Below are positions 2,100-28,412 of a stretch of DNA of 36,779 nt, in pieces. The DNA lies in UHGV virus genome UHGV-0182470; one strand, 5' to 3'. The notes below the pieces were generated by a model, which saw only the letters and a program-made list of their open reading frames with translations, did not search any database and was not told the origin of the DNA. The position numbers and the translations under genes are program-made. This stretch comes from a virus. The stretch's first letter is position 1. The number at the start of each line of letters is the position of its first letter.

Positions 2100-2581
2100 G
2101 ACAGCAGCCCTCCCACCGTTTTACTGATATCGCTTAAGGCAGACGTTGCCGTATCCTGCAAATTATTCAGCTGCGCACTGAGATCACCGAACATATCGGA
2201 CAGGGATTCATCCACCCGTTTGAGCGACAGCGTGAACTCAATCCGGCGCGGCATACCATCGCGGAAAAACTCCGTTTTAGTCTGATTCAGTCCCTCAATC
2301 ACATACATGCCGTAAATCGTGCCGCTGCCTTCAATCAGGGGCCATGCTTTTCCCTGTTCTGCCATCTGCTCCAGAGCCAGCAACGACAGCCTGCCGCCCG
2401 TTATCTCCGGCATAAGAACACCAGAAAGCGTCAGCATGTCGTTGTCCGGTCCCAGAAACTGCATGGACGGACGTCGGTTGACCCGGCTGTTTGCCGCATG
2501 TCGCCAGCTGCGTTGATACTGCAGTTCCTGATACGGCACAGTGCGCAGCATAAACACGTACAATCCCAGCACCATCATCAT
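2096..2581 (-). CDS. U: Tail protein U
   Basis: 161-aa ORF between tape measure and D, translationally coupled (ATGA overlaps) as in P2 T-U-D. Confidence 0.85.
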   Translation of the reverse strand: MMMVLGLYVFMLRTVPYQELQYQRSWRHAANSRVNRRPSMQFLGPDNDMLTLSGVLMPEITGGRLSLLALEQMAEQGKAWPLIEGSGTIYGMYVIEGLNQTKTEFFRDGMPRRIEFTLSLKRVDESLSDMFGDLSAQLNNLQDTATSALSDISKTVGGLLS

Positions 2582-5500
2582 GCGTCGTATCCCCCCTGAT
2601 CGCTGTAGTTACTCCTGGCTTTTGCCTTCAGCCTGCGTTCACGTTCATCAAGCTGGCGGGCCACCTCCCGCGCAATATCCTGCGCACTTTGTCCTGGCTG
2701 CGTCTGAATGATGATCTGCGTCGGTGCCTCAATCCGTTGAACGGGCGGCACAGTGGCTGCACGACTCACCATCGCTTCGCCGCCTTTCGAGGGAAGTGCC
2801 AAAGGATGCAACGGTGGAAGCTCTGCAGGCGCGGCAGCAACGCCCATCATTCCGGCAACAACGGCAGCCAGTGAAGCTGTATTTCTCCGGCTGGTCACAT
2901 TTGCCGGGCCGTTAACAATTTCCGGCCCGTTTTCACCGACGATGCCAAACTGCCCGCGCGGGATATAGCCGCCGCTGTCATACATCCCCGCAAAGCCATA
3001 TCCCCATGACGGAAAACCACCCGATGGCATCATCACTTTACCGTCTGCATTCACCGTCGCAGGTTGCTGACGCGTCACGCTTTCCGGCAGTTTCGCCTTT
3101 GCGGCCTCTTTACTGACAATGCCGAGTTTTTCCAGCAACCAGGATACGCCGGATTTCAGGGAGTCCAGCGGATGCATGACCATATTCAGCCCTTCCGCCA
3201 GCGCCTCCCCGAATCGTCGCCCCATTGCCGCTGCGCTCTGCAGTTCGGCAGAAGTCGACTTAACGGGCGTCAGCAAATCAGTAAACCAGCCCCACAGCGC
3301 CTGCACTTTGTCGCCAATCCACTGGAACACAGGCTTAAGCGGTTCGAATGCGGCACTGATGGGTCCTGCCGCCGCTTTGAATCCTTCCACCACGCCACCG
3401 AGAAATGCGGTGATGGGTTGCCAGTATTTCCAGACAACCAGCGCCACGCCCGCCAGTGCAGTAACCACAAGACCTATCGGACTGAGCAGAGCACCTAACA
3501 GACCAGATACGGCATACAGGGCAACGCGCAGCATCGCCAGTGGACCAGATGCCAGTACTCGCAGCACCGTGCCTGCGGCGGCCAGTCCACCGCGCAGTAC
3601 CGCCAGAGGATTCATAAACATCACAGCAGCAGCACGTAAACCGGATAATCCAGACCGGAACAGTGCAACCGGCGCACCTGCTACAGTTTTCAGGACATTC
3701 CCCGTCAGTGATGCCGTGCGACGCAAAGACGACAACGGAGCAGTAAGTAAACCCGCTGCGTTGCCCGATGAAGCAAGCCCGCGTCGCAGCAGTGCCAGTG
3801 GAGCGCCAGCTAACCAGGACAACGCGCTGCTGGTTCGTGTTACTGCTGCGGTAACGGAAGGTAACGTTTTGATACCCAGCACAGAGAATCCCAGACGGAT
3901 GACTGCCAGCGGCCCCAGCACTGCAGCCAGCGCCACCGCTAAGGTGCCGAGGCCTACGGTAACCGCAGCCACAACAGCCGCTACTTTCATCAGTGTGCCT
4001 GTCAGTTCCGGGTTAGCTTCCACCCAGCGGCGCAACGCCCCCGTGATGCTTTTCACCGTGTACAGAATATCCATCAGCGGCTGGCGCAGCGTTTCGCCCA
4101 GGCTGCTGAAGGTGTTCTGCGCTCCGGTTTTGACCAGCAACCACTGAGCAGAAAGTGAGTCTTTGTTGATGTCGGATTCTTTCTGCATGGAACCGAGCGC
4201 ATCATTGCCCGCTGTCAGTTTTAGCTGGCGCTGCAGTTCCGGAAGGTTGTTTGCCAGTTTCGCCGCGTCATCACCAAACTCTTTACCAAACAACATGGTC
4301 ATGGCAGACAGACGCTTGTCCTGCGGCAGTGCGTTCACCTTCTCCAGCACACGCTGGATAGTTCCCATCGCATCCTTCGTCATCTGCTTTTCAATCACTT
4401 CAGGATTGAGTTTCAGCAGATTCATCCCTTCAAAGAAACTCTTGCTTTGCATGGTGGCAATGGACAATTCACGCACCATCGCGTTTGCTGCACTGGCTGC
4501 AACCTCCGGTGCAGCGCCCAGTGTCAGGAAGGTGGAACCCAGCGCCGCCGCTTTACGATAATCCAGACGGTCAGCCACACCGCCCAGACGCTGCATCACA
4601 TCAATGATGTCCGCCCCTTTCGACATGGCGTTATCATCCAGAAAGTTCAGCGCATCACCGAGCTGTTCAATATTGCGGGTTGGTATTTTGTAGAGCTGGG
4701 CGATTTTCCCCAGACTTTCTGACAGTTCATCCGCTGGCAGCTCAAAGGCTGTTGCCGCTTTTGCTGCCGTACTGGCGAAGGCCAGCAGGTCACGTTTCTG
4801 GTCCTCCCAGCTGTCGTCAGGGTTTGCCACATTCATGCGCGCACCACCTTCAACCAGTGCGGCGAAGTCCACAGCACCGTTTTCCATTGGCAGCTGTTCA
4901 CTGGCAGCTTTGATGGCATCCTGCATTTCGTAAAAACGCGCAGTGCGGTTGCCATTATCGTCACGCAGACCATTGACCTGCTTTGCCACACCTTTCATGG
5001 CATCTTCCATGCTGGTATAGCTTTTTACCGCCGCCATCACTGGCGCGCCCATTGCCAGCCCTGCAGCCGTGGTGGTGGCTCCGGCTCCTGCGATGCGATC
5101 GCGCACTTCAAGCCGTCTTGAGTATTGTTCTCTGGCAACGTTCATCCGTGCCTGTTGTTCACCCAGACGTTTAAGTGCTTTTTGCTGGCCCTCCAGTGCC
5201 TGACGAGTTTCTTCGGCATTTTTCTTAAGTTCTCGCTGGGCACTACTGAGTTGTCTGGTATCAATCCCTGATTCTTTAAGTGCCTGACGTTGTCTCTGGA
5301 CCGCCCCCAACAAGCCGTTATAGGTCTGCTGAAGTTCCTGTACTCGTGTTTTGGCCTGACTGAATAACTTTGCTTGCGCGGCGGTTGGCCTGTTAGTGGC
5401 AGCAAATTGTGTGGCGAGTTTTGCCGCCTCTTCGCGGGCTGTGTTCAGGTTGTTGGCTGTTATGGCTAGTTGCGAGCGCGTCTTGCGAAATTCATCAATT

Positions 5501-5655
5501 CTGCCAGCCTGCTTATTCAGTTCTTTGAGGCTGTTTCGGGTATTCTGAATTGCGCCAGCCAGCTCTTTCGAACTGGCCTGTGCAGCACGGAATGGGCGGG
5601 TGAGTTTGTCAACCGCATTAAGAATGACCTGCAGGCGCAGGTTATTATCACTCAT
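2578..5655 (-). CDS. T: Tail tape measure protein
   Basis: 1025-aa ORF, coiled-coil N-terminus, Ala/Gly-rich hydrophobic repeats (LxxxAGxP...) in the middle; position after E/E'. Confidence 0.9.
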   Translation of the reverse strand: MSDNNLRLQVILNAVDKLTRPFRAAQASSKELAGAIQNTRNSLKELNKQAGRIDEFRKTRSQLAITANNLNTAREEAAKLATQFAATNRPTAAQAKLFSQAKTRVQELQQTYNGLLGAVQRQRQALKESGIDTRQLSSAQRELKKNAEETRQALEGQQKALKRLGEQQARMNVAREQYSRRLEVRDRIAGAGATTTAAGLAMGAPVMAAVKSYTSMEDAMKGVAKQVNGLRDDNGNRTARFYEMQDAIKAASEQLPMENGAVDFAALVEGGARMNVANPDDSWEDQKRDLLAFASTAAKAATAFELPADELSESLGKIAQLYKIPTRNIEQLGDALNFLDDNAMSKGADIIDVMQRLGGVADRLDYRKAAALGSTFLTLGAAPEVAASAANAMVRELSIATMQSKSFFEGMNLLKLNPEVIEKQMTKDAMGTIQRVLEKVNALPQDKRLSAMTMLFGKEFGDDAAKLANNLPELQRQLKLTAGNDALGSMQKESDINKDSLSAQWLLVKTGAQNTFSSLGETLRQPLMDILYTVKSITGALRRWVEANPELTGTLMKVAAVVAAVTVGLGTLAVALAAVLGPLAVIRLGFSVLGIKTLPSVTAAVTRTSSALSWLAGAPLALLRRGLASSGNAAGLLTAPLSSLRRTASLTGNVLKTVAGAPVALFRSGLSGLRAAAVMFMNPLAVLRGGLAAAGTVLRVLASGPLAMLRVALYAVSGLLGALLSPIGLVVTALAGVALVVWKYWQPITAFLGGVVEGFKAAAGPISAAFEPLKPVFQWIGDKVQALWGWFTDLLTPVKSTSAELQSAAAMGRRFGEALAEGLNMVMHPLDSLKSGVSWLLEKLGIVSKEAAKAKLPESVTRQQPATVNADGKVMMPSGGFPSWGYGFAGMYDSGGYIPRGQFGIVGENGPEIVNGPANVTSRRNTASLAAVVAGMMGVAAAPAELPPLHPLALPSKGGEAMVSRAATVPPVQRIEAPTQIIIQTQPGQSAQDIAREVARQLDERERRLKAKARSNYSDQGGYDA

Positions 5656-6138: not shown

Positions 6139-6654
6139 TCAGAGGCCGAGGGCGTTGCGGTGCGCTTCCATCAGGTCCACACCGTCCACAATTTCCACCA
6201 TGTTGATAAGGTCCACTTCATAGAGCACCTCACCATTTATAGTCAGCTTCGCGTAGCTGTTGGTACTGGTCACTTTGGTGGTGTTGCTTTCGCCCGTCTT
6301 CCACTCGCCGGAATCCACTTCTTTGTGACGTCCACGCACCACAAGCTCCACGGCCTGCACTTCCCCGGTATCGTCACGCTGGATAGAGCCGGTAAAGCGC
6401 AACTGGATACCATCCACCGTGGCTTTGCCCATCTGCTTAAACAGCAGCAGTTCAGTACCACCAATGGAAAATTCCGTATCCAGTGCGCCGTCATCCAGCC
6501 CCAGATCCACATCCACTGCACCCGGCATTCCGCCGCCGCGATACTTCTCATATTTGCGGGTAAATTTCGGCAGCGTCAGCGACTCAACGATCCCCTGCCA
6601 GTTGTTCCCGTCATTAAACAGGTTCAGGTGTTTTAATTTGCGTGGTAAAGCCAT
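6139..6654 (-). CDS. FII: Tail tube protein FII
   Basis: 171-aa ORF; size, position after sheath gene and sequence consistent with P2 gpFII. Confidence 0.9.
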   Translation of the reverse strand: MALPRKLKHLNLFNDGNNWQGIVESLTLPKFTRKYEKYRGGGMPGAVDVDLGLDDGALDTEFSIGGTELLLFKQMGKATVDGIQLRFTGSIQRDDTGEVQAVELVVRGRHKEVDSGEWKTGESNTTKVTSTNSYAKLTINGEVLYEVDLINMVEIVDGVDLMEAHRNALGL

Positions 6655-6663
6655 GTTGTCCCC

Positions 6664-7836
6664 TTACGCGCTGACCTGGCTGGAGAAATTCACCAGGTAC
6701 TGATCGGTGATGCGCTGACGCAGCATCAGGTTTTCAAGTGGCGGCACTGGCGTGTAGTCGTAGTCGATGGTGAGTTTTCCGGCTTTCAGCGTGTCTTTGT
6801 CGTTCACCGACTCATCCAGCCAGCAATCACCACCAATGAGATAGCCCTGACTGACCAGGCTGCGCATTTTGGCGCGGATACCCTCGATAATGTCGCGGGC
6901 CAGCGACGGATTCAGCGGTTTATCCACCGCCCACATGTGCGCTTCTGCCATCGTGTCCGTCAGCACCTGCGCCGTGCGGGTGTAGTTTTCGAAGGCAAAG
7001 AGCGGGTCATCACTCAGGCAGCGGGAACCCCAGAAGCGAAAACCGTCTTTGCGGATAAGGGTGGTGACGTCGTTCTGGTTCAGCAGTCCCGCATCGGTTG
7101 CCGGGTCCTGCAGATCCCAGAACACATCAGCAGAAATTCCGGTGACACCGTTAACGCCCACGTTGGACAGGCTTTTGTGCCATCCGGTCTGCTCGTCAAT
7201 TTTGGCGCGCAGACCAAGCGCACGGGCGGTGGCATAAGCCGTTGCTTCGGCATTCAGCACCGTGTCCCAGCCAGTAAAGTCGGGCCAGATCAGCATTCCT
7301 TCACGCTGACTGAAGTTTTCACGGTAAGTGATTGCTTCCTGCACCGTCTTGCAACCATACGCTGACAGGTAAGCAAATCCACGCAGGCTTTGCGCCACGC
7401 TCAGCAACTCAGTAGCTACCGCCTTCGTGTCGTGACCTGGCACGCCGAGAATGCGCGGTTTAACGCCGAGCTGTGACTGGGCAGATAACAGGGCTTTCAT
7501 GCCTGTTTTTTTACCTTCAGCGGTCACTGCTCCGATGATATTGGTCGTGGTTTCTTCTTCCGTTTCACCCTGCGGCACACGCACAACAACGGTCACGGGT
7601 TTTGCCTGGTCAGCGATGGCATCCAGCGAACGAGCCAGCGTGCCTGACTCACCCGCTTTACCGCTGGCAGTCAGCACATCAGTGATCAGCACGGGTTTAT
7701 TAAGAGGAAACATTTTTGCATCGGCATCATCGCCCGTGCAGACCATACCCACGATGGCGGTGCTCACCGTGGTAATGGATCGGGTGCCTTCGTTGACTTC
7801 AACAACGCGCACCCCGTGGTGGTAATCCTGAGCCAT
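6664..7836 (-). CDS. FI: Tail sheath protein FI
   Basis: 390-aa ORF starting [14 protein letters not shown]..., typical contractile sheath; first gene of F operon. Confidence 0.9.
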
Positions 7837-7978: not shown

Positions 7979-8551
7979 TCAGGGGGATTCATTACTCTTA
8001 TTTGCCGGAAATTTTCTATAAATTGTGGAAACACCCACATCAAAAATCAGTGCAATACGCTGTCTTGATTCTCCGGCCTCGAGTAAGCGTCCAATCTGTG
8101 CCCACTGTTCGGTAGTCAACTTAGGACGGCGTCCACCTACTCTGCCTTTGGCGCGAGCTGCAGCAAGCCCCGCCCTGGTACGTTCAACTATCAGTTCGCG
8201 TTCCATTTCAGCCAGGGCACCCATGACATGAAAAAAGAAACGGCCCATTGGGGTACTGGTATCAATACTGTCAGTCAGGCTTCGGAAATTCACACCTCGC
8301 TGGCGCAACTCTTCTATCAACGTAACAAGATGCCGCATACTGCGCCCCAACCTGTCCAGCTTCCAGACAACCAGCGTGTCTCCTGCCGATAGTGTCCTGA
8401 GCAGTTTTTTCAGCCCCGGTCTGTTGGACTTAGTGCCACTGATTTTGTCCTCAAAAATCCGCTCACATCCCGCGCAGTTCAGTGCATTACGTTGCAAATC
8501 GGTGTTCTGGTCATTTGTTGACACGCGTACATAGCCAATAAGCATGATCAA
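7979..8551 (-). CDS. Serine recombinase, DNA invertase (Hin/Gin/Cin/Pin family)
   Basis: 190-aa ORF MIMLIGYVRVSTNDQNTDLQ...GDTLVVWKLDRLGRS...C-terminal HTH; catalytic Ser motif YVRVST; lies 50 bp from an invertase crossover-type site. Confidence 0.9.
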   Translation of the reverse strand: MIMLIGYVRVSTNDQNTDLQRNALNCAGCERIFEDKISGTKSNRPGLKKLLRTLSAGDTLVVWKLDRLGRSMRHLVTLIEELRQRGVNFRSLTDSIDTSTPMGRFFFHVMGALAEMERELIVERTRAGLAAARAKGRVGGRRPKLTTEQWAQIGRLLEAGESRQRIALIFDVGVSTIYRKFPANKSNESP

Positions 8552-8600
8552 TCCCCTGAATAAAAACCGGGGATGATGCCAGTTAGCCGTTATCTCTGCA

Positions 8601-8626
8601 TTTTCATAAACGTTGGTTTGGGAGAA
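8601..8626. repeat. Invertase crossover site, left (hix/gix-like)
   Basis: TTTTCATAAACGTTGGTTTGGGAGAA; its reverse complement matches the first 14 nt of the site at 10056-10081 exactly (TTCTCCCAAACCAA). Confidence 0.75.
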
Positions 8627-8956
8627 GCCAGATATGTCATTCAGCGAGGAGCTAATGTCAATGGAGCATGGATACGCTGGTCAGATGGTGCAATAGAAGT
8701 ATTTGGAACTGGTGGTTCCAATGATAATGGGCTGGCTAAAGTCGTTTATCCAATTGCACTACCTAAGCTTTCACGTTTTATCAGCATAGCGGAAAGAATA
8801 AGAACAGATTACGAGGCCACACCTAATAACGTTCACGTTTCAATGATCGTGGATGACCAGGTCAGTAATACAGGTTTTTATGTCCGCTGCCAGATGTACG
8901 ACGGAAGACCATCAACAAGTGCTTTTTCCTGGAGAGTTTATTGTGCGCCTGTTTAA
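8601..8956 (+). CDS. Silent alternative tail-fibre C-terminal segment (no own start; fused to H constant part after inversion)
   Basis: Open frame from the left crossover site (...VGLGEARYVIQRGANVNGAWIRW...RVYCAPV) in the same phase as GLGEA in H. Confidence 0.6.
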
Positions 8957-9140
8957 TCCTGTTACTTTGACTGAAGTAATCCCCGGTCTTCATGACGTGA
9001 CCGGGGCTGTGGAATTACCAGAAGATAACTGGTTTTTTACTGCATCTGAAATCCCTGAAGGAATGGAAATATCTGTTAACGAGAAGGGCGAACCCATTCT
9101 GATTGAGATTAAACCATCTCAGGTGGAACTGGCCAGATAA
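8943..9140 (+). CDS. Alternative small tail-fibre assembly/chaperone-like ORF (silent orientation)
   Basis: GTG start with GGAGAG RBS 6 nt upstream, overlapping the end of the alternative fibre segment; 65 aa; assignment by position only. Confidence 0.4.
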   Translation: MRLFNPVTLTEVIPGLHDVTGAVELPEDNWFFTASEIPEGMEISVNEKGEPILIEIKPSQVELAR

Positions 9141-9375
9141 CCCCCGGCGCGGTGCTGGTATCTGCTTCCATCACCGCGTCGATATTACCAACATCATATT
9201 CAGTCATTTCCGGTTCCGGTGGTGCTATAAACTCTCCGTCAGAATAGAACCAACCGACGCCTGCATCTATATGATCAACATTTATAATTTCGCAATTAGA
9301 GAATAAATCACCCTCTCCATCCCAGATAATAATATTTTTCACCACGCCATGTTCAATCAGAGCAAAATTACTCAT
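9109..9375 (-). CDS. Small tail-fibre assembly/chaperone-like protein (expressed orientation)
   Basis: 88-aa ORF starting at the stop of H (ATGA overlap), inside the invertible segment; assignment by position. Confidence 0.5.
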   Translation of the reverse strand: MSNFALIEHGVVKNIIIWDGEGDLFSNCEIINVDHIDAGVGWFYSDGEFIAPPEPEMTEYDVGNIDAVMEADTSTAPGVIWPVPPEMV

Positions 9376-11117
9376 CAGGCATACTCCTCAACAATAACTA
9401 TTCCCGGGGCACCGTCACCTCCCGATTGAGCCTCACTTCCGGCAGGTGCGCAGGCTCCGCCTCCGCCAGCACCAAAGCCCTCAGCTTTACCACCACCACG
9501 TCCTCTGAATGATGAAGAACTTGCACCACCTATACCGCCTGAACCTAATGGTGTATCCCCCCCGGTACCACCTGCTACAGCTTTAACAGAGATAACCATT
9601 GCTCCTGGTGTTTTTGCACTACAGCGAAATGCTCTTAGTACAGTGCCGGACGATGTCGGACTGGCACCCCATGAAATACCCTGAATATATGATGTGTTTG
9701 CAGATGCTCCCCCCGCGCCACCGCCTGTACCACCAGGTGCAGTTATCATGGAACCGAAATAAGTTGTGCCACCTTCACTACCTGAATTTCTTCCGGCTCC
9801 CCCCCCTTTACCTGCAGCACCGATAATAACGTTGACTTCGAAATCATTATCAACCTCGAAAAATGCTTCAATAAATGCGCCGCTCAATCCAGCTCCGGCT
9901 GTTGCCTGCTGATTTTCTGTTGTTTCAGGAACCCCACCGCCGCCGCCGCCACCACCAGAGGCAATGACCCTTATCTTTTTTGTCCCTGGTGTTGGGATAT
10001 ATTTTCCAGAGCTTTTAAAAATATTCGTGTTTAACAAACGACCAGAGAATCTGGCTTCTCCCAAACCAAGGTATGCGAGAAGACCAGTTACATCCTTTCC
10101 ACTCAAATTAGTCAACGTATTGTCCAGCGGTTGTTTACCTGCCAGCGCATTAAGCATTGTCGTGGCAAAGTTCGGATCATTCCCCAGTGCCGCCGCCAGT
10201 TCGTTCAGTGTATCCAGTGCCGCAGGTGCAGAACCCACCATTGCTGCAATCGCTGATTTCACAAAAGCCGTAGTGGCAATCTGTGTATTGTTGACCGACT
10301 GCGCCGCCGTGGGGGCTGTTGGCGTTCCGGTGAGTACCGGACTCGACAGCGGCGCTTTCAGTGCCAGCGCATTGTTAATGGTGGTACTGAATTTCGGATC
10401 ATTGTTAATGGCTACGGCTATTTCTTTCAGCGTGTCCAGCGTGGCTGGCGCACCATTAATAAGAGCCGTCAGTGCCGCCTGAACAAATGCTGTGGTCGCA
10501 AGCTGCGTGGTATTATTCCCCGCCGCTGGCGTTGGCGCTTTGGGGGTTCCGGTAAACGTCGGACTTTCTTTGGGTGCATACTGTGAATGCGGGTCCGGTG
10601 CGGCAAGATGTTTTGCCATCAGGTCATCCACGTACACCTTCAACTCCAGTGCTTTGTCATCCACATACTTGCGGGTTGCCAGCACTACAGCAGGGTCGAT
10701 TTTCAGGGTGATATTGTCCGTGCTGCTGGTTATCAGCGCCATGCGCACGGTCTGGGTGCGCCCGCTGCCTTCAGCCAGTTGCGGCTTATAGCTTTCCGGG
10801 CAGTTGCCCACGGCAATCAATGCCCCGGACTCATCAAACAGGCCCACTTCACGGATCCACCAACCGCCCTCGTTTTCAGGGATCACCTGTTCGGCAATAA
10901 TCTGGCTGCTGTTCTGCGGGTCGATATAGAGCATATTCAGCGCAGCCCGGCGTTTCTCATTTACCAGTGCAGTCTGCTTTGCGTCCGGCGTTGGCAATCT
11001 TCCGCCGCCATCGCCGACCGCCATATGGGTAATTTTTAACGGCACACCGAGCGCGGCGGCGCTGGCAAGTTTCGCCGCGCCAATATCCGTCAGCAGGGTA
11101 TAAAATTTTGTGCTCAT
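9375..11117 (-). CDS. H: Tail fibre protein H (constant N-terminal part 10082-11117; variable C-terminal part inside invertible segment)
   Basis: 580-aa ORF with repeated QLATTAFV / QIATTAFV motifs and Gly-rich C-terminal region; follows baseplate gene I. Confidence 0.85.
   Translation of the reverse strand: MSTKFYTLLTDIGAAKLASAAALGVPLKITHMAVGDGGGRLPTPDAKQTALVNEKRRAALNMLYIDPQNSSQIIAEQVIPENEGGWWIREVGLFDESGALIAVGNCPESYKPQLAEGSGRTQTVRMALITSSTDNITLKIDPAVVLATRKYVDDKALELKVYVDDLMAKHLAAPDPHSQYAPKESPTFTGTPKAPTPAAGNNTTQLATTAFVQAALTALINGAPATLDTLKEIAVAINNDPKFSTTINNALALKAPLSSPVLTGTPTAPTAAQSVNNTQIATTAFVKSAIAAMVGSAPAALDTLNELAAALGNDPNFATTMLNALAGKQPLDNTLTNLSGKDVTGLLAYLGLGEARFSGRLLNTNIFKSSGKYIPTPGTKKIRVIASGGGGGGGGVPETTENQQATAGAGLSGAFIEAFFEVDNDFEVNVIIGAAGKGGGAGRNSGSEGGTTYFGSMITAPGGTGGGAGGASANTSYIQGISWGASPTSSGTVLRAFRCSAKTPGAMVISVKAVAGGTGGDTPLGSGGIGGASSSSFRGRGGGKAEGFGAGGGGACAPAGSEAQSGGDGAPGIVIVEEYA
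10056..10081. repeat. Invertase crossover site, right (inside tail-fibre gene H)
   Basis: TTCTCCCAAACCAAGGTATGCGAGAA, inverted relative to the 8601 site; encodes the GLGEA peptide shared by H and the silent alternative fibre segment. Confidence 0.75.
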
Positions 11118-12659: not shown

Positions 12660-12966
12660 CGTTATTACGCCGCCCGATCAGCTCCACCACCATTGAACCG
12701 TCAAAATTGCTATTGATGGTGATGGAATCCAGCGTCAGCCGTGGCTCCCAGCGACTCAGCGCCACATACACTGCCGACATGACCTGCAGGCGTAATGCCG
12801 GATTTTGTGGCTGGTCTATCAGTGTCGACAGCAGGGAACCATATTCACGACGGGCAATGCGGCTACCCTGCGGTGTCAGTAGAATGTCCCGCACCGACTG
12901 ACGCAGATGGTCAATATCAGTAATGGCTTTACCGCTGGTATTGTTCATCCCGCTATAAAGCGTCAT
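12607..12966 (-). CDS. W: Baseplate protein W (gp25-like)
   Basis: 119-aa ORF, position and size match P2 gpW. Confidence 0.85.
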   Translation of the reverse strand: MTLYSGMNNTSGKAITDIDHLRQSVRDILLTPQGSRIARREYGSLLSTLIDQPQNPALRLQVMSAVYVALSRWEPRLTLDSITINSNFDGSMVVELIGRRNNGVPVSLSVSTGAENGSD

Positions 12967-13541
12967 ACCGGGCCTCCGGTTGTGTCGCCGCCTTTCAGGA
13001 CGCCAGTATGCTGATGTGCATCAACCACAATTCCGTTAGAACTCATTGCACCGCCGCCCTGGGTAACACCACCATTGATCACTACTTCGCTGTTAATGCG
13101 TGTGCGGTCAGCCTCCAGTACAAACTCACTGGTTTTCATGGTGATATTGTCGGCGGTCTCAATGACCATTGATTTGATGCCCCTGACATACCAGCGCCCG
13201 GTGGCGGGTTCGTATTCAAACCAGCCGCCGTCAGGATGCTCTGTCACGCAGGCATCCGCCGACGTCGACGGTGGTGCGAACTGATTCGAATAGATGGCGG
13301 GCAGCGCAAACGCGGTTTCAAGATTTCCGCCCAGACTCAGCAGCACCACCTGCTCACCTTCCGATGGTTTCCACCATGTGCGGGCATTCCCGGCACGCAG
13401 CGTCAGCCAGCTGATCCAGTTGGTTTCGAGGTCGCCAGTTTTCACCCGACACAGCCAGTTTGCCCTGTCCACTTCGGTGACTACACCTGTGCGGATCAGG
13501 TTGGTGATAAGGCGCATGATTTCGGTTAATTGTGCGTTCAT
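12963..13541 (-). CDS. V: Baseplate spike/hub protein V
   Basis: 192-aa ORF MNAQLTEIMRLITNLIRTGVV... resembling P2 gpV. Confidence 0.85.
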   Translation of the reverse strand: MNAQLTEIMRLITNLIRTGVVTEVDRANWLCRVKTGDLETNWISWLTLRAGNARTWWKPSEGEQVVLLSLGGNLETAFALPAIYSNQFAPPSTSADACVTEHPDGGWFEYEPATGRWYVRGIKSMVIETADNITMKTSEFVLEADRTRINSEVVINGGVTQGGGAMSSNGIVVDAHQHTGVLKGGDTTGGPV

Positions 13542-13761: not shown

Positions 13762-13793
13762 TTGACACAAAAGATGTTTATTGACAATATATA
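13762..13793 (+). promoter_or_regulatory. Putative sigma70 promoter of the DUF262 cargo gene
   Basis: TTGACA at 13762-13767 followed ~17-18 bp later by AT-rich -10-like hexamer (CAATAT/AATATA); ATG at 13820 with AAGGAG RBS. Confidence 0.35.
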
Positions 13794-13819
13794 AATTCAA
13801 TCTAACAAGGAGAAAAATT

Positions 13820-15595
13820 ATGCCAAATGAAAATCTTGATATTGACTCAAGGACTACCGAGCAATTATACGAATGGTATTTGCAAGGAAATTTGATAGTC
13901 AATAGACGTTATCAAAGGAAACTTGTATGGTCTCTAGAAGAAAAGACTTCTTTAATATCTTCTATGCTGCAACAATATCCTATTCCGTTATTATTATTTG
14001 TTACCATCAATGAACAAAGAGAAATATTGGATGGAATGCAAAGATTAGAAGCAATTATGAGCTTCATCGAACAGAGATTTTCATTAGATGGACAATATTT
14101 TGATTTGGACTCTATAGCTTTAACAAAACAACTTAAAGATAATGGAACTTTAATTCAGAAAGAACCAATCCTTTCCCGTGATTCTTCAGCAATTATTGCA
14201 CGTTATCGATTTGCAATATCAGAATATAGCTCCACAAATGAAAATATTGACGAAGTATTCAGACGAATAAACTCAAACGGGAAGATTTTATCCAAACAAG
14301 AATTACGTAGTGCAGGAACAGTTAGTAACTTCTCTGAACTGGTCAGATCGATATCAACATCGATCAGAGGTGATACTAGCCATTCTGACATTATGAATCT
14401 CCAGCAAATGCACAAAATTTCAATCAGTAACGATAGATTGGAGTACGGGGTAAATATCGATAACCACTTTTATATAAAACATCATATTTTAACAAGACGA
14501 AGTATTCGTGATTCTGATGACGAGGAATTGATAGCCAATATCCTTGCATATATCAGTCTAGAAGAAAAACCCACATCTGGGTCAACTTCTCTCGACACAT
14601 TCTATGGTCAAGGAAACTCCTCTCATGCTCATGGTGTCAGACAGCAATTAGAGTCTTTCATTCAAACCAATAACGCTGCCACTATTAAGCAGAATTTCAT
14701 AGCTGTATATGAATTAATTACAAGCCTATATGACGGAAAAAATGATACTTTTAGAAGCCATATTTTAGGGGAGGATAATTCATCTCAAGAATGCCCTCGT
14801 TATTATCAAGCTGTGTTTTTGTCTATTTATGAACTTCTTTTCAACCAAAATATGCAATTAATTGATAAAGAAGGTTTATTCTCGCAATTAAAAAACACTG
14901 GCAATACCATAATTATGGTTACCGATGGTGGCCGCTGGGCTGCAAGCACTCGTGAAAAAAGTGTTAATGATCTTGTTGCATTAATAAGTCGCTACTTCCA
15001 ACCTGCTCCTCAAAAGTATGTGAATCATGCTTGGGTAACTGAAATTCGCAATCTATTAACAAATTCTAGAACTGAACAACCAAGTTATGATTTCAAACAG
15101 GGGTTCTTTAATTTATCAGGTAAAAATGAATTTGATGATGAATGTTTAAAAGGAATATTACAAACTTGCGTAGCAATAAATAATATTGGAAAAAGCGCAA
15201 AAGGCTATATTTTAGTTGGTATTGCCGAAAATAAATTAACCGCAGATAGAATTCAACATTTATATGGAGTAAATTCAATTGAGTTCAATGGGTTCTATAT
15301 AAACGGAATTGATCATGAAGCAATGTTAGTCTCTGGTAGCATTGATGGTTACTTTATGTTAATAAAACAAAAAATACAAGGATACAATTTCACTGAAACT
15401 CTAAAACAGCAGATACTTAAGAATATTGAGTTTTGCTCTTACAATGGCTTACACATACTCAAGATAACTATTCAGAGCACAGGTCAAATTTGCGACTTTG
15501 AGAATATGTTTTATATCAGACAAGGCTCATCGACTGATCCAGTTACGGATACACAAAAAATCTCAGCCCTATTTAACTCTTACATGAACAGCTAA
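13820..15595 (+). CDS. DUF262 (ParB/GmrS-like N-terminal domain) protein, candidate defence cargo gene
   Basis: 591 aa from ATG 13820 (AAGGAG RBS; ORF track start 13781 is upstream in frame); N-terminal region ...RRYQRKLVWS...ILDGMQRLEAI matches the DGQQR signature region of DUF262; visibly AT-rich relative to flanking phage genes; opposite strand to S and V. Confidence 0.7.
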   Translation: MPNENLDIDSRTTEQLYEWYLQGNLIVNRRYQRKLVWSLEEKTSLISSMLQQYPIPLLLFVTINEQREILDGMQRLEAIMSFIEQRFSLDGQYFDLDSIALTKQLKDNGTLIQKEPILSRDSSAIIARYRFAISEYSSTNENIDEVFRRINSNGKILSKQELRSAGTVSNFSELVRSISTSIRGDTSHSDIMNLQQMHKISISNDRLEYGVNIDNHFYIKHHILTRRSIRDSDDEELIANILAYISLEEKPTSGSTSLDTFYGQGNSSHAHGVRQQLESFIQTNNAATIKQNFIAVYELITSLYDGKNDTFRSHILGEDNSSQECPRYYQAVFLSIYELLFNQNMQLIDKEGLFSQLKNTGNTIIMVTDGGRWAASTREKSVNDLVALISRYFQPAPQKYVNHAWVTEIRNLLTNSRTEQPSYDFKQGFFNLSGKNEFDDECLKGILQTCVAINNIGKSAKGYILVGIAENKLTADRIQHLYGVNSIEFNGFYINGIDHEAMLVSGSIDGYFMLIKQKIQGYNFTETLKQQILKNIEFCSYNGLHILKITIQSTGQICDFENMFYIRQGSSTDPVTDTQKISALFNSYMNS

Positions 15596-24557: not shown

Positions 24558-25070
24558 ATGTCCATCCAAGAAGTTAACTATCAATGGGCTGTTGCTTTGC
24601 TTACCGCCCAACATACTATTATTCTGGAGCTCAACGCCAGCGAAGCTGATAAAGACACCCCCACTTTAATGGGTGAAGATCAACGGCAAATTGTAGAACG
24701 GCAAATAAAACAACGAAGTGGGCAAAAAACATTTCGCGACCAGCTATTAAAATCAAATCCTACTTGTGCGGTTACGGGCTGTAAGCTTGTTGATATTCTT
24801 GATGCTGCTCACATTAATGTATATCGAAACGATAGTCACAATCATATTAGCAATGGATTATTGCTCAGAAGTGACATTCATACTTTATATGACCTAAATC
24901 TTTGTGCTATAAACCCGATAACAAAAACCATTCATTTTTCAGTGGAAGCCTTGGAAAATGGATATTCGAAATTCGAAGGTTTAAAAATAAATACCCAACA
25001 CAACATAGCAATAAAACCACTATTAACAAGATGGCAGTTATTAAAATCTCAAAACTCTATTGATATATAA
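24558..25070 (+). CDS. HNH endonuclease-domain protein
   Basis: 170 aa; motifs RSGQKTFRDQLL...CAVTGC...LDAAHI...NGLLLRSDIHTLYD fit the HNH (restriction-type) signature; ATG abuts the TAA of the upstream ORF (TAAATG); AT-rich. Confidence 0.7.
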   Translation: MSIQEVNYQWAVALLTAQHTIILELNASEADKDTPTLMGEDQRQIVERQIKQRSGQKTFRDQLLKSNPTCAVTGCKLVDILDAAHINVYRNDSHNHISNGLLLRSDIHTLYDLNLCAINPITKTIHFSVEALENGYSKFEGLKINTQHNIAIKPLLTRWQLLKSQNSIDI

Positions 25071-25085
25071 TAAATAGCGACAACC

Positions 25086-25117
25086 GAAGGGAGCGTTTAT
25101 AATTAAAAGCTCCCTTT
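25086..25117. terminator. Bidirectional hairpin terminator between convergent cargo genes
   Basis: GAAGGGAGC ... GCTCCCTTT stem flanked by A/T-rich sequence. Confidence 0.5.
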
Positions 25118-25126
25118 AGCAGGAAA

Positions 25127-26155
25127 TTAGAGCACTAGGGGATCAGTGACCCATGCTTTATTATGGTTTTCTCGATAACAATCATAAATTAATAAATCCG
25201 TTCTTGTATCCGGTGGAAGTTCAATTTCAGGAATGTAATAACTTGCTGGATTGCTATTATCTAATGAAATTGAAAAGTTTTGATTAACGATCGTTGATAG
25301 AGACGTATTGGCTTCCAATAAGCTAAACGGGCCATATTTTACACAGTACATTACAACACAAGCAGCAACTGCATCCATTACATTTTCTAAAGTGGAAAAG
25401 TGGAATGCTCCTGATCTATCATGTTTAGTTTTATTATATGCATTATACCATGACAAAGATGTTGTAGGGGTACTTGCATTCCACCCATCAAAAGGTTTGA
25501 AATGCCTTAATCCGTCATAATTCAAATATTGAATTTTATATTCAGACAAATAACACTTATCTAATAATTTCACATAATCATTTGTGGAGTATCGACCATT
25601 TGAACGAGATAAATTCGAATTACCAATGATTGACACCCATTGATTTTCAACCTCAGTACAAGCAAGAATTAATAGCTCTCTACATTTATGACTGTAAGAA
25701 ATCAAACCATGGGCACTTGGTTCTACATATAGAAAAATATCATCGAGTTTTTCTATCAAAACTCTTAGAGCTTGCTCTGTTGCTCTTTTTTCAAACTCAT
25801 CGATACCTAATGCTGTTTCTGTATCATTGACATAATATAAGGATGGCCGCCACACTCCCCTAGTTACATGTCCAATTTCATTATCTAAAGGAGATATGTT
25901 CTGAGCCCCAAATACTCTCCGAACCCAATCATTGAGAGTTCCACTTCGTTGCTCAATAACAGTTAACCCAACTGATATTACATTAAATCCCACGTCACGC
26001 CCATACAGATGCACAAAATGACTTGTTGTTTCATAAGCGTAACCGAATTTGTGCTTTTGATGTACTGTTGTTTCAAAATTAGGAATGCGTGTATGAGTGT
26101 TTTCGTACCAGATTCCGTTCATCATCACCTCTAATGAGAGTCGATTATATTTCAA
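25127..26155 (-). CDS. Hypothetical 342-aa AT-rich cargo protein
   Basis: Long uninterrupted ORF on the minus strand in an AT-rich island between Q and the putative cos site; no confident family assignment (contains an RSGAFH, i.e. R-x4-H, motif). Confidence 0.6.
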   Translation of the reverse strand: MKYNRLSLEVMMNGIWYENTHTRIPNFETTVHQKHKFGYAYETTSHFVHLYGRDVGFNVISVGLTVIEQRSGTLNDWVRRVFGAQNISPLDNEIGHVTRGVWRPSLYYVNDTETALGIDEFEKRATEQALRVLIEKLDDIFLYVEPSAHGLISYSHKCRELLILACTEVENQWVSIIGNSNLSRSNGRYSTNDYVKLLDKCYLSEYKIQYLNYDGLRHFKPFDGWNASTPTTSLSWYNAYNKTKHDRSGAFHFSTLENVMDAVAACVVMYCVKYGPFSLLEANTSLSTIVNQNFSISLDNSNPASYYIPEIELPPDTRTDLLIYDCYRENHNKAWVTDPLVL

Positions 26156-26233
26156 TGGATTATATGGATGATACTACACTAAGTTGTACCTATGACAGAT
26201 ACTATTTTAGCCACTTCAGGCATACAGCGCGCG

Positions 26234-26252
26234 CTCGTATCCCCGCCACGCC
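26234..26252. other. Putative cos cohesive-end site (P2/186-like)
   Basis: Reverse complement reads GGCGTGGCGGGGATACGAG; first 13 nt match the 186 cos sequence GGCGTGGCGGGGA as I recall it; GC-rich island in AT-rich surroundings. Confidence 0.4.
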
Positions 26253-26583
26253 TGCTCGCTTTATGTAGTGGTTTTCATGCACCTGCATGACATGAGTAAA
26301 AGCCCGCCAGTTCTGGCAGGTGTCTGCAAAAACGATCCTCAATCGATCATGCGATTTCATGCAGCATAGTCATGCACTGCCAAGGGAAGCGTTAATCCGT
26401 ATCTGATAACCGCTTGAAAAACGAAACATACTGGTTTACAACAATAAAAATCCGCTGTGAGCGAAGAGCAGAAGTTACAGCATAAAAAGCAATATGGTTG
26501 TGTACCATAGAGCTAAACATTTAAACAAGTTATGTGCTGTATCGATATACTGTGACTCAATATCTAAAACATGGAGGGTGAAT

Positions 26584-27057
26584 ATGTCTTCTTCTACATC
26601 ACAACTACAGCATGTTACAACATCGACAACAGTAAACTCGTCAAGTTACTCCCCCGTCAAATTGCAAGATCATGAAGCAGCATCGAATTCTGGACCTGGT
26701 GGACATACAATTAGAAGACATGTTGGCAAGGATGCCAATTACCTGATAGATCGATTAGATCGATTTCCTAAACTCTGTGTAGCTTCAACATTTACAAACT
26801 TATCAGTAGCAGAACTATCAGCTACCGAGTGGTTCAATTCATTTCTTATGGAATTTACAGAGTGGTATAAAGATCCTAATCGCACAGAGGTTAGATTTTC
26901 AAAGGAATTAGACATTGAACAGGATGTAGGCACTTACGTTAAACGCGATAATCCAAACAATATATTGACTGCAAAAAGAATTAATTTAGTCATGAAAATT
27001 GAAAAGTTTAACGGAATGCCTCATTTCATCCTCACTGCATATCCTGTTAAGGGGTGA
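26584..27057 (+). CDS. Hypothetical protein, toxin-like (Ser/Thr-rich N-terminal linker + compact C-terminal domain)
   Basis: ATG 26584 with GGAGGG RBS (track ORF starts upstream at 26494); 158 aa; motif GGHTIRRHVGK; translationally coupled to the next gene. Confidence 0.6.
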   Translation: MSSSTSQLQHVTTSTTVNSSSYSPVKLQDHEAASNSGPGGHTIRRHVGKDANYLIDRLDRFPKLCVASTFTNLSVAELSATEWFNSFLMEFTEWYKDPNRTEVRFSKELDIEQDVGTYVKRDNPNNILTAKRINLVMKIEKFNGMPHFILTAYPVKG

Positions 27058-27061
27058 TAAT

Positions 27062-27721
27062 ATGTCAAAAGAATATACTAAACTAGATAATTTTATACGG
27101 TCCTACTTCAATCAAGATACCGTATGCGAACTTGAGTCAGATGATCTTGGAAAGATTATTGATTTATATCTTTCTGATGTTGGTCAGAATGGCGTAAAAG
27201 AACTTCTAATTGATATTTCAAAGTTTATTAATGATAATAAAAATCAAAGCCTTGATAAATATTTTGAGAATAAGTTCAGCTCTTATCTTGACATAACTCC
27301 AGTTGAAAAATTCATCTCACTCTTGAATTCAAAATATCTCGAAAAATATCCTGAGATAAAATCCACTGCCGTGAAACATTTTGTATTTTCTACTACACCA
27401 AAGAGAACACAGCATAAACCAAGAATAATTAAAAGATTTCCTTCAATGGTTCCAGCACTTAGTTTTGAGTTTTCATCAGAACGAATCGCTGATTCCAATG
27501 CTTTGTTTCGAGGAAAAGTTTTTAAGCGTAACAACATTAAGCGCGGAGCCAGAAAACCATATTATATACTGGTAAACATCAAACCAAAACAAGAGGCGGC
27601 TATAAAGGTTTCTTTATCTAAGAGTAAGAGTCGTCAACGTCTTTACGATTCACTTAAAAAATCCATTGAAGCTACAGATATTGTTTTGCAAAATAATAAA
27701 GTCGAAAAAATGAAATCATAA
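27062..27721 (+). CDS. Hypothetical protein, immunity/partner-like, basic C-terminus
   Basis: ATG 27062 with AAGGGG RBS, 4 nt after stop of upstream gene; 220 aa; Lys/Arg-rich C-terminal third. Confidence 0.6.
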   Translation: MSKEYTKLDNFIRSYFNQDTVCELESDDLGKIIDLYLSDVGQNGVKELLIDISKFINDNKNQSLDKYFENKFSSYLDITPVEKFISLLNSKYLEKYPEIKSTAVKHFVFSTTPKRTQHKPRIIKRFPSMVPALSFEFSSERIADSNALFRGKVFKRNNIKRGARKPYYILVNIKPKQEAAIKVSLSKSKSRQRLYDSLKKSIEATDIVLQNNKVEKMKS

Positions 27722-27730
27722 CGTGAAGAA

Positions 27731-27757
27731 AATAGCCACTCCTAGTGGCTATCTTTA
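27731..27757 (+). terminator. Rho-independent terminator after the two-gene module
   Basis: ATAGCCACT / AGTGGCTAT perfect 9-bp stem, 3-nt loop, followed by CTTTAATT. Confidence 0.6.
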
Positions 27758-27941
27758 ATTGTTATCCCAAAACCATCTCCTAGGGAGGTGGTGATTGATT
27801 TATAAGATAGTTAAAACCAAAAACATTTGACAGTAGTAAAGAGAAAGTTGCGTCCATCAGTTGAAGTCAAAGCATAAAGCGGACGATCACTTATCAAAAT
27901 GGCCGCCCACCTAACTCCTCGTTTCACTCGTGCTAAAACTA

Positions 27942-27971
27942 GCCCCCATCAGAATAAATCCTCCTGGGGGC
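27942..27971 (-). terminator. Rho-independent terminator after dinI-like gene
   Basis: GCCCCC...GGGGGC hairpin immediately downstream (minus strand) of the stop at 27980, followed by a U-rich tract on the minus strand. Confidence 0.5.
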
Positions 27972-27979
27972 AACGTTTC

Positions 27980-28210
27980 TTAATGCAGCCAGCTGTCGTC
28001 TTCCCACACCTTCTGCATAATTTTCATCACTTGTTTTCTTTCTTCGTCCAGTTGCAGTCCGGTCAGTTCCACACCGTTAGAGCTACCTTTGCGGATACGA
28101 ATTACCGTTTTGGGATACAGGGGGCGCAGATTGCGGTAAAGCTCGGATTCAAGGGCGTCCAGTGTAGACTGGCTAACCTTCTGCTCTTTATCGATCATTA
28201 TTTCAATGCG
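27980..28210 (-). CDS. dinI: DinI-family protein (ORF track extends to 28285; start at MRIEIMI)
   Basis: MRIEIMIDKEQKVSQSTLDALESELYRNLRPLYPKTVIRIRKGSSNGVELTG...KIMQKVWEDDSW aligns along its length with E. coli DinI as I recall it. Confidence 0.8.
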   Translation of the reverse strand, partial: RIEIMIDKEQKVSQSTLDALESELYRNLRPLYPKTVIRIRKGSSNGVELTGLQLDEERKQVMKIMQKVWEDDSWLH

Positions 28211-28223
28211 CATAAAAGTCACC

Positions 28224-28412
28224 TCAGCTGATGACATCCATTGAGCGGTTGTATTCGTGGGTTCTGATTTTTGCCATAAGTTCATCTGTCAGTTCAGAAA
28301 CCCACTGCAGGGCCAGCCCCTTCTCTTCATCACTACACTCACTAGCCGCTACAAGCTTAAGAAAAAAATCAATGCGCTGGAGCTTCAAAGACTCCAAAAA
28401 ATAGTCCTGCAT
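28224..28412 (-). CDS. Small acidic hypothetical protein, first gene of LexA-boxed operon (Tum-like antirepressor candidate)
   Basis: 62-aa ORF immediately downstream of a LexA box and upstream of the dinI-like gene; functional assignment is inference only. Confidence 0.4.
   Translation of the reverse strand: MQDYFLESLKLQRIDFFLKLVAASECSDEEKGLALQWVSELTDELMAKIRTHEYNRSMDVIS

Follow-up and report, generated by a model that had tools for sequence, protein, structure and literature searches.

Tail-fibre switches of the Gin/Cin type have been textbook cases since the 1980s. The invertase Fin of the P2-like prophage Fels-2 can reportedly flip the Salmonella H segment, an observation ascribed to Kutsukake et al. 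in 2006. In P2-like prophages of enteropathogenic Escherichia coli (EPEC), inversion has been documented by sequencing, including a shufflon with three repeats, and the orientations were found to coexist (PMC4272514). In the same study, the polymerase chain reaction (PCR) confirmed the inversion for e14, and mapped reads did so for the P2-like prophages (PMC4272514). The Z/fun hotspot of P2 often holds an invertase (10.1101/2024.10.15.618418).

In this study, the virus genome UHGV-0182470 was analysed over its whole length of 36,779 nucleotides (nt), which is referred to as the window and is essentially one complete P2-like prophage. The locus of interest comprises a DNA invertase gene and the neighbouring tail-fibre gene H, whose 3' part lies in a DNA segment bounded by inverted repeats. 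We concluded with high confidence that the specificity of the tail fibre is switched at this locus by site-specific inversion of the Gin/Cin type (Din family).

Invertase, crossover sites and exchange of the fibre tips

The open reading frame (ORF) of the invertase is intact and has a GGGGA Shine-Dalgarno sequence ahead of its ATG; the same 567-nt coding sequence is annotated in RefSeq. Its product matched the Pfam families Resolvase (2.8e-53) and HTH_7 (1.4e-15) as well as PHROG 125 'DNA invertase' (8.5e-101), and the NCBIfam scan gave sub-threshold matches only. The Gin structure 3uj3 was aligned to residues 1-184 without gaps (E-value 3.9e-92), and the amino acid (aa) identity was 79% to P1 Cin and 74% to Mu Gin. 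Ser9 and Arg42 are retained. The residues conserved only in the Fis/enhancer-dependent invertases have been defined by McLean et al. (PMC3798978) as Hin K47, K/R48 and K/R51 in helix B, together with Q151, R154 and L155 in helix 1 of the DNA-binding domain. The equivalents of all of them are present here (K46, K47 and R50; Q150, R153 and L154). Judged by its sequence, the recombinase is a full-length member of the Gin/Cin/Hin (Din family) invertase group.

An inverted repeat with arms of 33 nt, located at 8601-8633 and 10049-10081, was detected next to the invertase gene; the arms are 85% complementary and 1415 nt lie between them. Its exact 21-nt core, TTGGTTTGGGAGAAGCCAGAT, was found in the window only at 8613-8633 on the plus strand and at 10049-10069 on the minus strand, when none was expected from 100 shuffles. 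The hix/gix/cix-type pattern TTCTCNNAAACCNNGGTTTNNGAGAA was fitted by a 26-mer in each arm, with two mismatches and one mismatch, and these were its only matches in 36.8 kb, again with none expected. Up to three mismatches to this degenerate 26-bp pattern were allowed, and since no further site was found, the switch has two sites only, and a shufflon with extra crossover sites was rejected.

When the reverse complement of the invertase-proximal site, TTCTCCCAAACCAACGTTTATGAAAA, was compared with the distal site, TTCTCCCAAACCAAGGTATGCGAGAA, the first 14 nt were identical and 20 of the 26 positions agreed overall. The central dinucleotides, TT and AA, are complementary in the inverted orientation, and the distal one falls within the Leu350 codon of H. 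The half-sites and the central AA were nearest to those of P1 cixR (TTCTCTTAAACC-AA-GGTATTGGATAA). The gap from the proximal site to the invertase ATG is 55 bp. At least 598 loci in IMG/VR encode close relatives of the invertase, and the best 80 of them were inspected; in nearly all of these 80, the site keeps its place 81 nt ahead of the invertase start.

The fibre gene is divided by the distal site into a constant part (Hc) and an expressed tip (Hv), and a silent, start-less tip (Hv') is encoded on the other strand. Hc carries the Pfam Phage_tail_fib N-terminal domain (9.7e-65), and its nucleotide identity is 92-97% in most of the IMG/VR relatives, regardless of the cassette. The peptide GLGEA is encoded at both sites, as ...AYLGLGEARFSG in H and as ...NVGLGEARYVIQ in the start-less plus-strand ORF. 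In an in-silico flip with cuts at 8613/14 and 10068/69, the 350 codons of H were joined in frame to the silent tip through GLGEAR, and the fibre of 580 aa was replaced by one of 463 aa. Both fibre products are annotated in RefSeq, and the 463-aa protein occurs exactly so in flipped genomes. Among the homologues of the silent tip, which come from six genera, the conservation starts exactly at GLGEA, the peptide of the crossover site.

The two tips are unrelated receptor-binding folds: the expressed one is a Pam3-like TNF/glycine-rich tip, and the silent one is a gp53/R-pyocin-like foot. When they were compared with PDB chains by sequence, the glycine-rich tip had no match and Hv' gave chance-level matches only; NCBIfam had no family for either fibre part or for either of the small ORFs described below. 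The glycine-rich cassette was present in 35 of 5426 complete E. coli genomes. A tblastn search of 50,697 phage records with the glycine-rich tip found none, although the low-complexity filter may hide matches.

Most of this anatomy had been proposed in an earlier note made from the letters of the DNA alone. A serine invertase, two 26-bp sites at 8601-8626 and 10056-10081 with a 14-nt match in inverted orientation, GLGEA at both sites, an invertible segment of about 1.5 kb and an exchange of the fibre C-terminus were all borne out by the intact recombinase ORF, the pattern search and the in-frame flip. The note placed the invertase 50 bp from its site; the two are indeed adjacent, and the distance needs the correction given above.

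Silent tips were annotated by gene callers as proteins in their own right, either 'hypothetical' or 'glycine-rich domain-containing'. Such calls are 126-127 aa long for the silent tip of the window (8573-8956, plus strand) and 243-244 aa in flipped genomes, with spurious starts upstream of the crossover site. They form large database clusters, e.g., P0006 with 291 members and P0126 with 112.

Both orientations in natural populations

The window arrangement and the in-silico flipped arrangement were used as queries against the 5426 complete E. coli genomes. Full-length, single-piece matches with 100% query coverage were obtained for both, 15 for the window arrangement and 9 for the flipped one. 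LR1 and LR4, two genomes from one chicken-farm project, were identical over 9361 bp save for an exact reverse-complement of 8634-10048, without a single mismatch. The inverted stretch is exactly the DNA between the 21-nt cores, and the breakpoints lie inside the repeats. The invertase gene, the enhancer stretch and the sites of LR1 and LR4 are identical to those of the window. Differences in orientation were also seen between UC4315 and both UC4224 and UC4316, and between DG341-1 and each of DG342-2, DG343-1 and DG351-2, the four DG genomes being equal in length and having a different second cassette. In IMG/VR, one copy (L013) is 100% identical to the window but flipped, and L012 and L043 are opposite in orientation to L029. 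The segments of the best 80 relatives range from about 1.1 to 2 kb.

In strain 214-4 (NZ_CP025840.1), the locus occurs twice, at 5109149-5136509 (L003) and 5511-32871 (L004), with the segment in opposite orientations. The flanks of the two copies are 99.97-99.98% identical, the same exact segment is reversed, and the locus is 98.9% identical to the window. The ends of the 'complete' chromosome of this strain overlap by at least 27 kb that had not been trimmed (two 27.4-kb stretches were compared), and the copies show indel-type frameshifts. Since the overlap includes the host genes rimK-nfsA-grxA, the prophage appears twice in the assembly. This points to an assembly artefact that recorded a mixed population in one culture.

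The comparison of orientations had been put forward in the earlier note as a check on populations and was here run on the genomes of relatives. According to that note, the idea would fail if only one orientation was ever seen together with an inactivated invertase or a lost site; what was found instead is that both orientations occur among near-identical prophages.

Several IMG/VR contigs have unusual structures at this locus. Three of them (L032, L040 and L059) start exactly 49 nt before a crossover site, which thus stands at position 50. Three or four sites in duplicated or mirrored arrangements were seen in L027, L033 and L059, and a second copy of the invertase gene on the opposite strand in L033 and L084. 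Such breaks and mirrorings would be expected from assemblers that cut or fold the sequence at a segment existing in two orientations.

The coordinates of the features are collected in Table 1.

Table 1. Features of the inversion locus and of the adjoining late genes in UHGV-0182470
Feature	Position	Strand	Remarks
DNA invertase gene	7979-8545	minus	188 aa; ATG at 8545; Ser9 nucleophile
Presumed Fis-dependent recombinational enhancer	8456-8527	minus	invertase nt 19-90
Candidate Fis core GCGCGGGATGTGAGC	8461-8475		invertase nt 71-85
Candidate Fis core GTGTCAACAAATGAC	8510-8524
Weak terminator-like hairpin and T-run	8565-8584	minus	consensus scan only
Invertase-proximal 26-bp site	8601-8626	plus	TTTTCATAAACG-TT-GGTTTGGGAGAA; central dinucleotide 8613-8614
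Invertible segment	8613-10069		1457 bp between crossover dinucleotides; unique part 8634-10048
Silent tip Hv'	8615-8956	plus	start-less; GLGEAR + 107 aa
65-aa ORF, coupled to Hv'	8943-9140	plus	GTG start; GGAG 7 nt upstream; 14-nt overlap with Hv' stop
88-aa ORF, coupled to expressed tip	9109-9375	minus	ATGA overlap with H stop
Expressed tip Hv (H aa 351-580)	9375-10067	minus	TNF-like + glycine-rich domain
Distal 26-bp site inside H	10056-10081	plus	TTCTCCCAAACC-AA-GGTATGCGAGAA; central dinucleotide 10068-10069
Constant part Hc (H aa 1-350)	10068-11117	minus	outside segment
D, U, T	2578-5655	minus
E, then FII and FI	FII 6139-6654; FI 6664-7836	minus
H, then I, J, W, V	H 9375-11117; V 12963-13541	minus	past the invertase/segment region

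Proposed mechanism

The 350 constant codons of H and the late promoter are located outside the 1457-bp segment, which is bounded by the inverted cix-like sites and holds two convergent cassettes. In the window, the TNF-like/glycine-rich tip with the 88-aa ORF is expressed, and the gp53/R-pyocin-like foot with the 65-aa ORF is silent. In the mechanism that we propose, the invertase would bind both sites and presumably be activated by host Fis, bound to the enhancer near the 5' end of the invertase gene. Cleavage would take place at the central AA/TT dinucleotides, followed by strand exchange through subunit rotation. After reversal of the segment, the other tip would complete H and the other small ORF would be co-translated, and a population of lysogens would release two types of virion with different receptors.

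Enhancer, expression signals and alternative explanations

As a check, the earlier note suggested searching the 5' part of the invertase gene for a Fis-dependent enhancer. The record of P1 annotates the enhancer at cin nt 19-90, and the homologous stretch of the window is 8456-8527. Its nucleotide identity to P1 was 78%, compared to 69% for the rest of the invertase gene; it includes the invariant block TCAACAAATGACCAGAACAC, and the Fis-like core GCGCGGGATGTGAGC is identical to that of P1 at 14 of 15 positions. Among 15 diverse invertase genes, the synonymous diversity was 0.31 in the enhancer/5' end and 0.46 elsewhere, and the enhancer region ranked eighth lowest of 157 windows of the scan. 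The signal is modest and suggestive, with its lowest values at the 5' end, but the scan is confounded by coding constraint and by kinship among the sequences, and we therefore rate the enhancer as inferred. The switch would presumably depend on Fis.

Several observations weigh against the switch as we describe it. At third codon positions, the enhancer stretch is not clearly more similar to P1 and Mu than the rest of the gene is, and this part of the enhancer comparison was thus not discriminating. The presumed proximal Fis core GCGCGGGATGTGAGC has a G at position -3 (its fifth G), where nearly all relatives, P1 and Mu have an A. When the 55-bp gap was scanned with consensus sequences, no sigma-70-like promoter of the invertase was detected, the site counts not exceeding those in shuffles, and the weak terminator-like hairpin sits between the segment and the invertase start. 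With low confidence, this hairpin may terminate the V-W-J-I-H operon; in P2, a terminator follows G at the corresponding place. Neither of the two small ORFs matches the Pfam or NCBIfam models of tail fibre assembly (Tfa) proteins, and they are not canonical members of that group. Ongoing switching in the copy of the window would follow from identical relatives rather than from the source culture. Likewise, the change of host range is suggested by the receptor-binding folds of the tips and by the precedent of Mu and P1.

Some of these points would be accounted for if the locus were a frozen relic, in which the parts look intact but the segment no longer inverts, for example with the invertase silent or the enhancer weakened, and only the glycine-rich fibre is made. 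The promoter-like site missing from the scan, the G at -3 and the derivation of the orientation evidence from relatives, not from the population of the source strain, all speak for a relic. We nevertheless consider it improbable. The change at -3 is synonymous (GCA>GCG), and the LR1/LR4 group has it too, yet shows both orientations; the invertase, the enhancer stretch and the proximal site of LR1 and LR4 are those of the window. Furthermore, the assembly of 214-4 has both states of a locus that differs little from that of the window.

Another explanation for the flipped copies, to which we assign a still smaller probability, is RecA-dependent recombination between the inverted repeats of 21-33 nt, or a series of assembly artefacts, in place of the invertase. 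The breakpoints can be placed only somewhere within the identical 21-nt core, and therefore sequence alone cannot separate the action of an invertase from that of RecA. However, an identity of 21 nt is, as generally held, very short for RecA recombination, and the flips recur independently in many lineages, always beside an intact Cin-like invertase and cix-like sites. Flipped copies are present in finished genomes from independent projects, and the same behaviour has been confirmed in e14 with PCR and in P2-like prophages with mapped reads (PMC4272514).

That the invertase mainly serves a target in trans, such as segments of other prophages or a phase-variation locus of the host, with the fibre segment being incidental, is the least probable reading, for although Din-family invertases are generally understood to cross-complement (the reported action of Fin on the H segment being an example), the only two sites in 36.8 kb both flank the fibre cassettes, the spacing between gene and site is kept in nearly all of the best 80 IMG/VR relatives, and action in trans would be an addition rather than an alternative to a Gin/Cin-type switch at this locus.

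Small ORFs coupled to the tips

In the earlier note, the gene downstream of each tip was called chaperone-like. Each tip does have a translationally coupled small ORF; their resemblance to known assembly proteins is partial. The 88-aa ORF corresponds to the RefSeq 'phage tail protein' WP_000064420.1 and matched PHROG 14370, of which the function is not known (2.1e-8). Over its final 23 aa, it shares 83% identity with the C-terminal end of a canonical 201-aa tail fibre assembly protein, and a search for homologues returned only five near-identical clusters, all from E. coli. The 65-aa ORF corresponds to the RefSeq coding sequence WP_001236016.1 and has the same size beside the Hv' cassette in the DG strains. 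It matched PHROG 5400 over its N-terminal half (4.7e-23) and, weakly, PHROG 188 'tail fiber assembly' (0.0039); BLASTP of it against P2 G and against the 201-aa Tfa revealed no similarity. Because neither ORF is canonical, and only the 23-aa Tfa end and the weak PHROG match link them to Tfa, a chaperone-like role is no more than plausible from these comparisons.

A stretch of about 53-75 nt, in the window at 9109-9183, encodes the Tfa C-terminus DAVMxxDTSTAPxVIWPVPPExV, and it lies in the middle of the segment in most of the IMG/VR loci (e.g., at 2869-2921 of L011). It is the sole part of the cassettes that is conserved across most relatives, and its antisense strand encodes the 3' end of the convergent 65-aa ORF. 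Homologous recombination may use this stretch as an anchor when cassettes are exchanged. We offer as a tentative and rather doubtful proposal that miniature accessory proteins of 88 and 65 aa replace the Tfa of 175-200 aa beside two unrelated tips, that the 88-aa protein is a minimal chaperone or fibre-binding module, and that the conserved convergent junction of 50-75 nt and the two crossover sites together serve as anchors for swapping single cassettes between P2-like phages.

Gene context and cargo genes

The gene calls in the window agree with those of RefSeq for an E. coli locus that is 99.9% identical. Beyond V lie the lysis, head and replication genes and the integrase. P2 has fun(Z) between G and FI, and the same slot is filled here by the invertase, as the earlier note had recognised. 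No transfer RNA gene was found by a scan of the whole window.

Cargo was noticed in two regions of the window. A plus-strand gene at 13781-15595 encodes a 604-aa protein in which a GmrSD_N (DUF262) domain is combined with a Schlafen AlbA_2 domain at the C-terminus; PADLOC matched it to NsnA (2.9e-23) and PD-T4-2_A (1.3e-17). The gene lies between V and S, in the orf30 slot of P2, has no counterpart in the related 214-4 prophage, and is probably an anti-phage defence gene. The second region is a hotspot at 24558-28231, between the portal gene Q and the replication gene A, with several cargo ORFs. These encode an HNH_2 endonuclease of 170 aa, a 187-aa protein with a bacterial CdiA-CT RNase A-like toxin domain (6.6e-20), a CdiI_2 immunity-like protein whose ORF overlaps that of the toxin, and two products with no assigned function, one of 110 aa and one of 342 aa from the minus strand. 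The CdiA-CT toxin and its CdiI_2-like partner may be a toxin/immunity or defence module.

Significance and comparison with known systems

No concept is changed by this locus, and its value lies in annotation and phage engineering. RefSeq names the parts only 'recombinase family protein', 'phage tail protein' and 'hypothetical protein'. Since the silent tip is called as a spurious ORF of 126-244 aa, a host-range prediction made from a single assembly tells half the story, and loci of this kind can cause breaks or duplications in assemblies. With the glycine-rich cassette, the known range of the Pam3 gp24-type tip now takes in P2-like phages of enterobacteria, and the two tips together offer a compact module for retargeting P2-like phages or tailocins.

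The Hin system of Salmonella has a homologous invertase, whose Fis-contact and helix-B residues recur here, and 26-bp hix sites that likewise have AA at the centre. Its Fis-dependent enhancer is located in the 5' part of the gene, where one is presumed in the window. However, Hin lies inside its own segment and flips a promoter, whereas here the invertase lies outside and coding 3' ends are exchanged. The P segment of e14 in E. coli K-12, with its invertase Pin, resembles it in having a Din-family invertase beside a short fibre-tip segment, both states of which coexist in cultures (PMC4272514). This element, which was set beside the window by description only, differs in being a lambdoid remnant with another fibre gene, stfE/ycfK.

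The organisation is the same as in Mu G/Gin. A constant 5' part of the fibre gene is followed by a tip with its accessory gene and, in convergent orientation, the other accessory gene and tip, and the invertase is on the same strand. The order here is Hc-[tip, small ORF / small ORF, tip]-invertase, and that of Mu is S-[Sv U U' S'v]-gin. In both, the sites are 26 bp long, a crossover site is located 55-67 bp upstream of the invertase start (55 here), and the enhancer, a presumed one in the window, lies inside the invertase gene. Nevertheless, Mu has a 3-kb segment, 175-aa U/U' chaperones, related S/S' tips and the central dinucleotides GA/TC, in place of a 1.46-kb segment, accessory ORFs of 88 and 65 aa, structurally unrelated tips and central AA/TT.

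P1 C/Cin has the nearest invertase (79% aa identity) and the nearest sites, and its enhancer is annotated at cin nt 19-90. Unlike in the window, cin is transcribed towards the segment, which is 4.2 kb long, and cixL overlaps the 3' end of cin. The Min system of p15B is a shufflon with six sites, as opposed to two here.

The fibre segments of P2-like prophages, such as those of EPEC E2348/69 and Fels-2 (Fin), and of the phages Cartapus, KP12, 500465-1 and pro483, share the phage family and the slot between the fibre genes and FI. The invertase of KP12 is 98.9% identical to that of the window and is annotated as a DNA invertase along with two tail-fibre assembly genes. In the records of these P2-like phages, only the flanks are in common with the window (58% of the query), and the cassettes carry canonical Tfa genes. 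Since such segments have been published before, the kind of system is already well known, and what is particular to this locus is the content of its cassettes.

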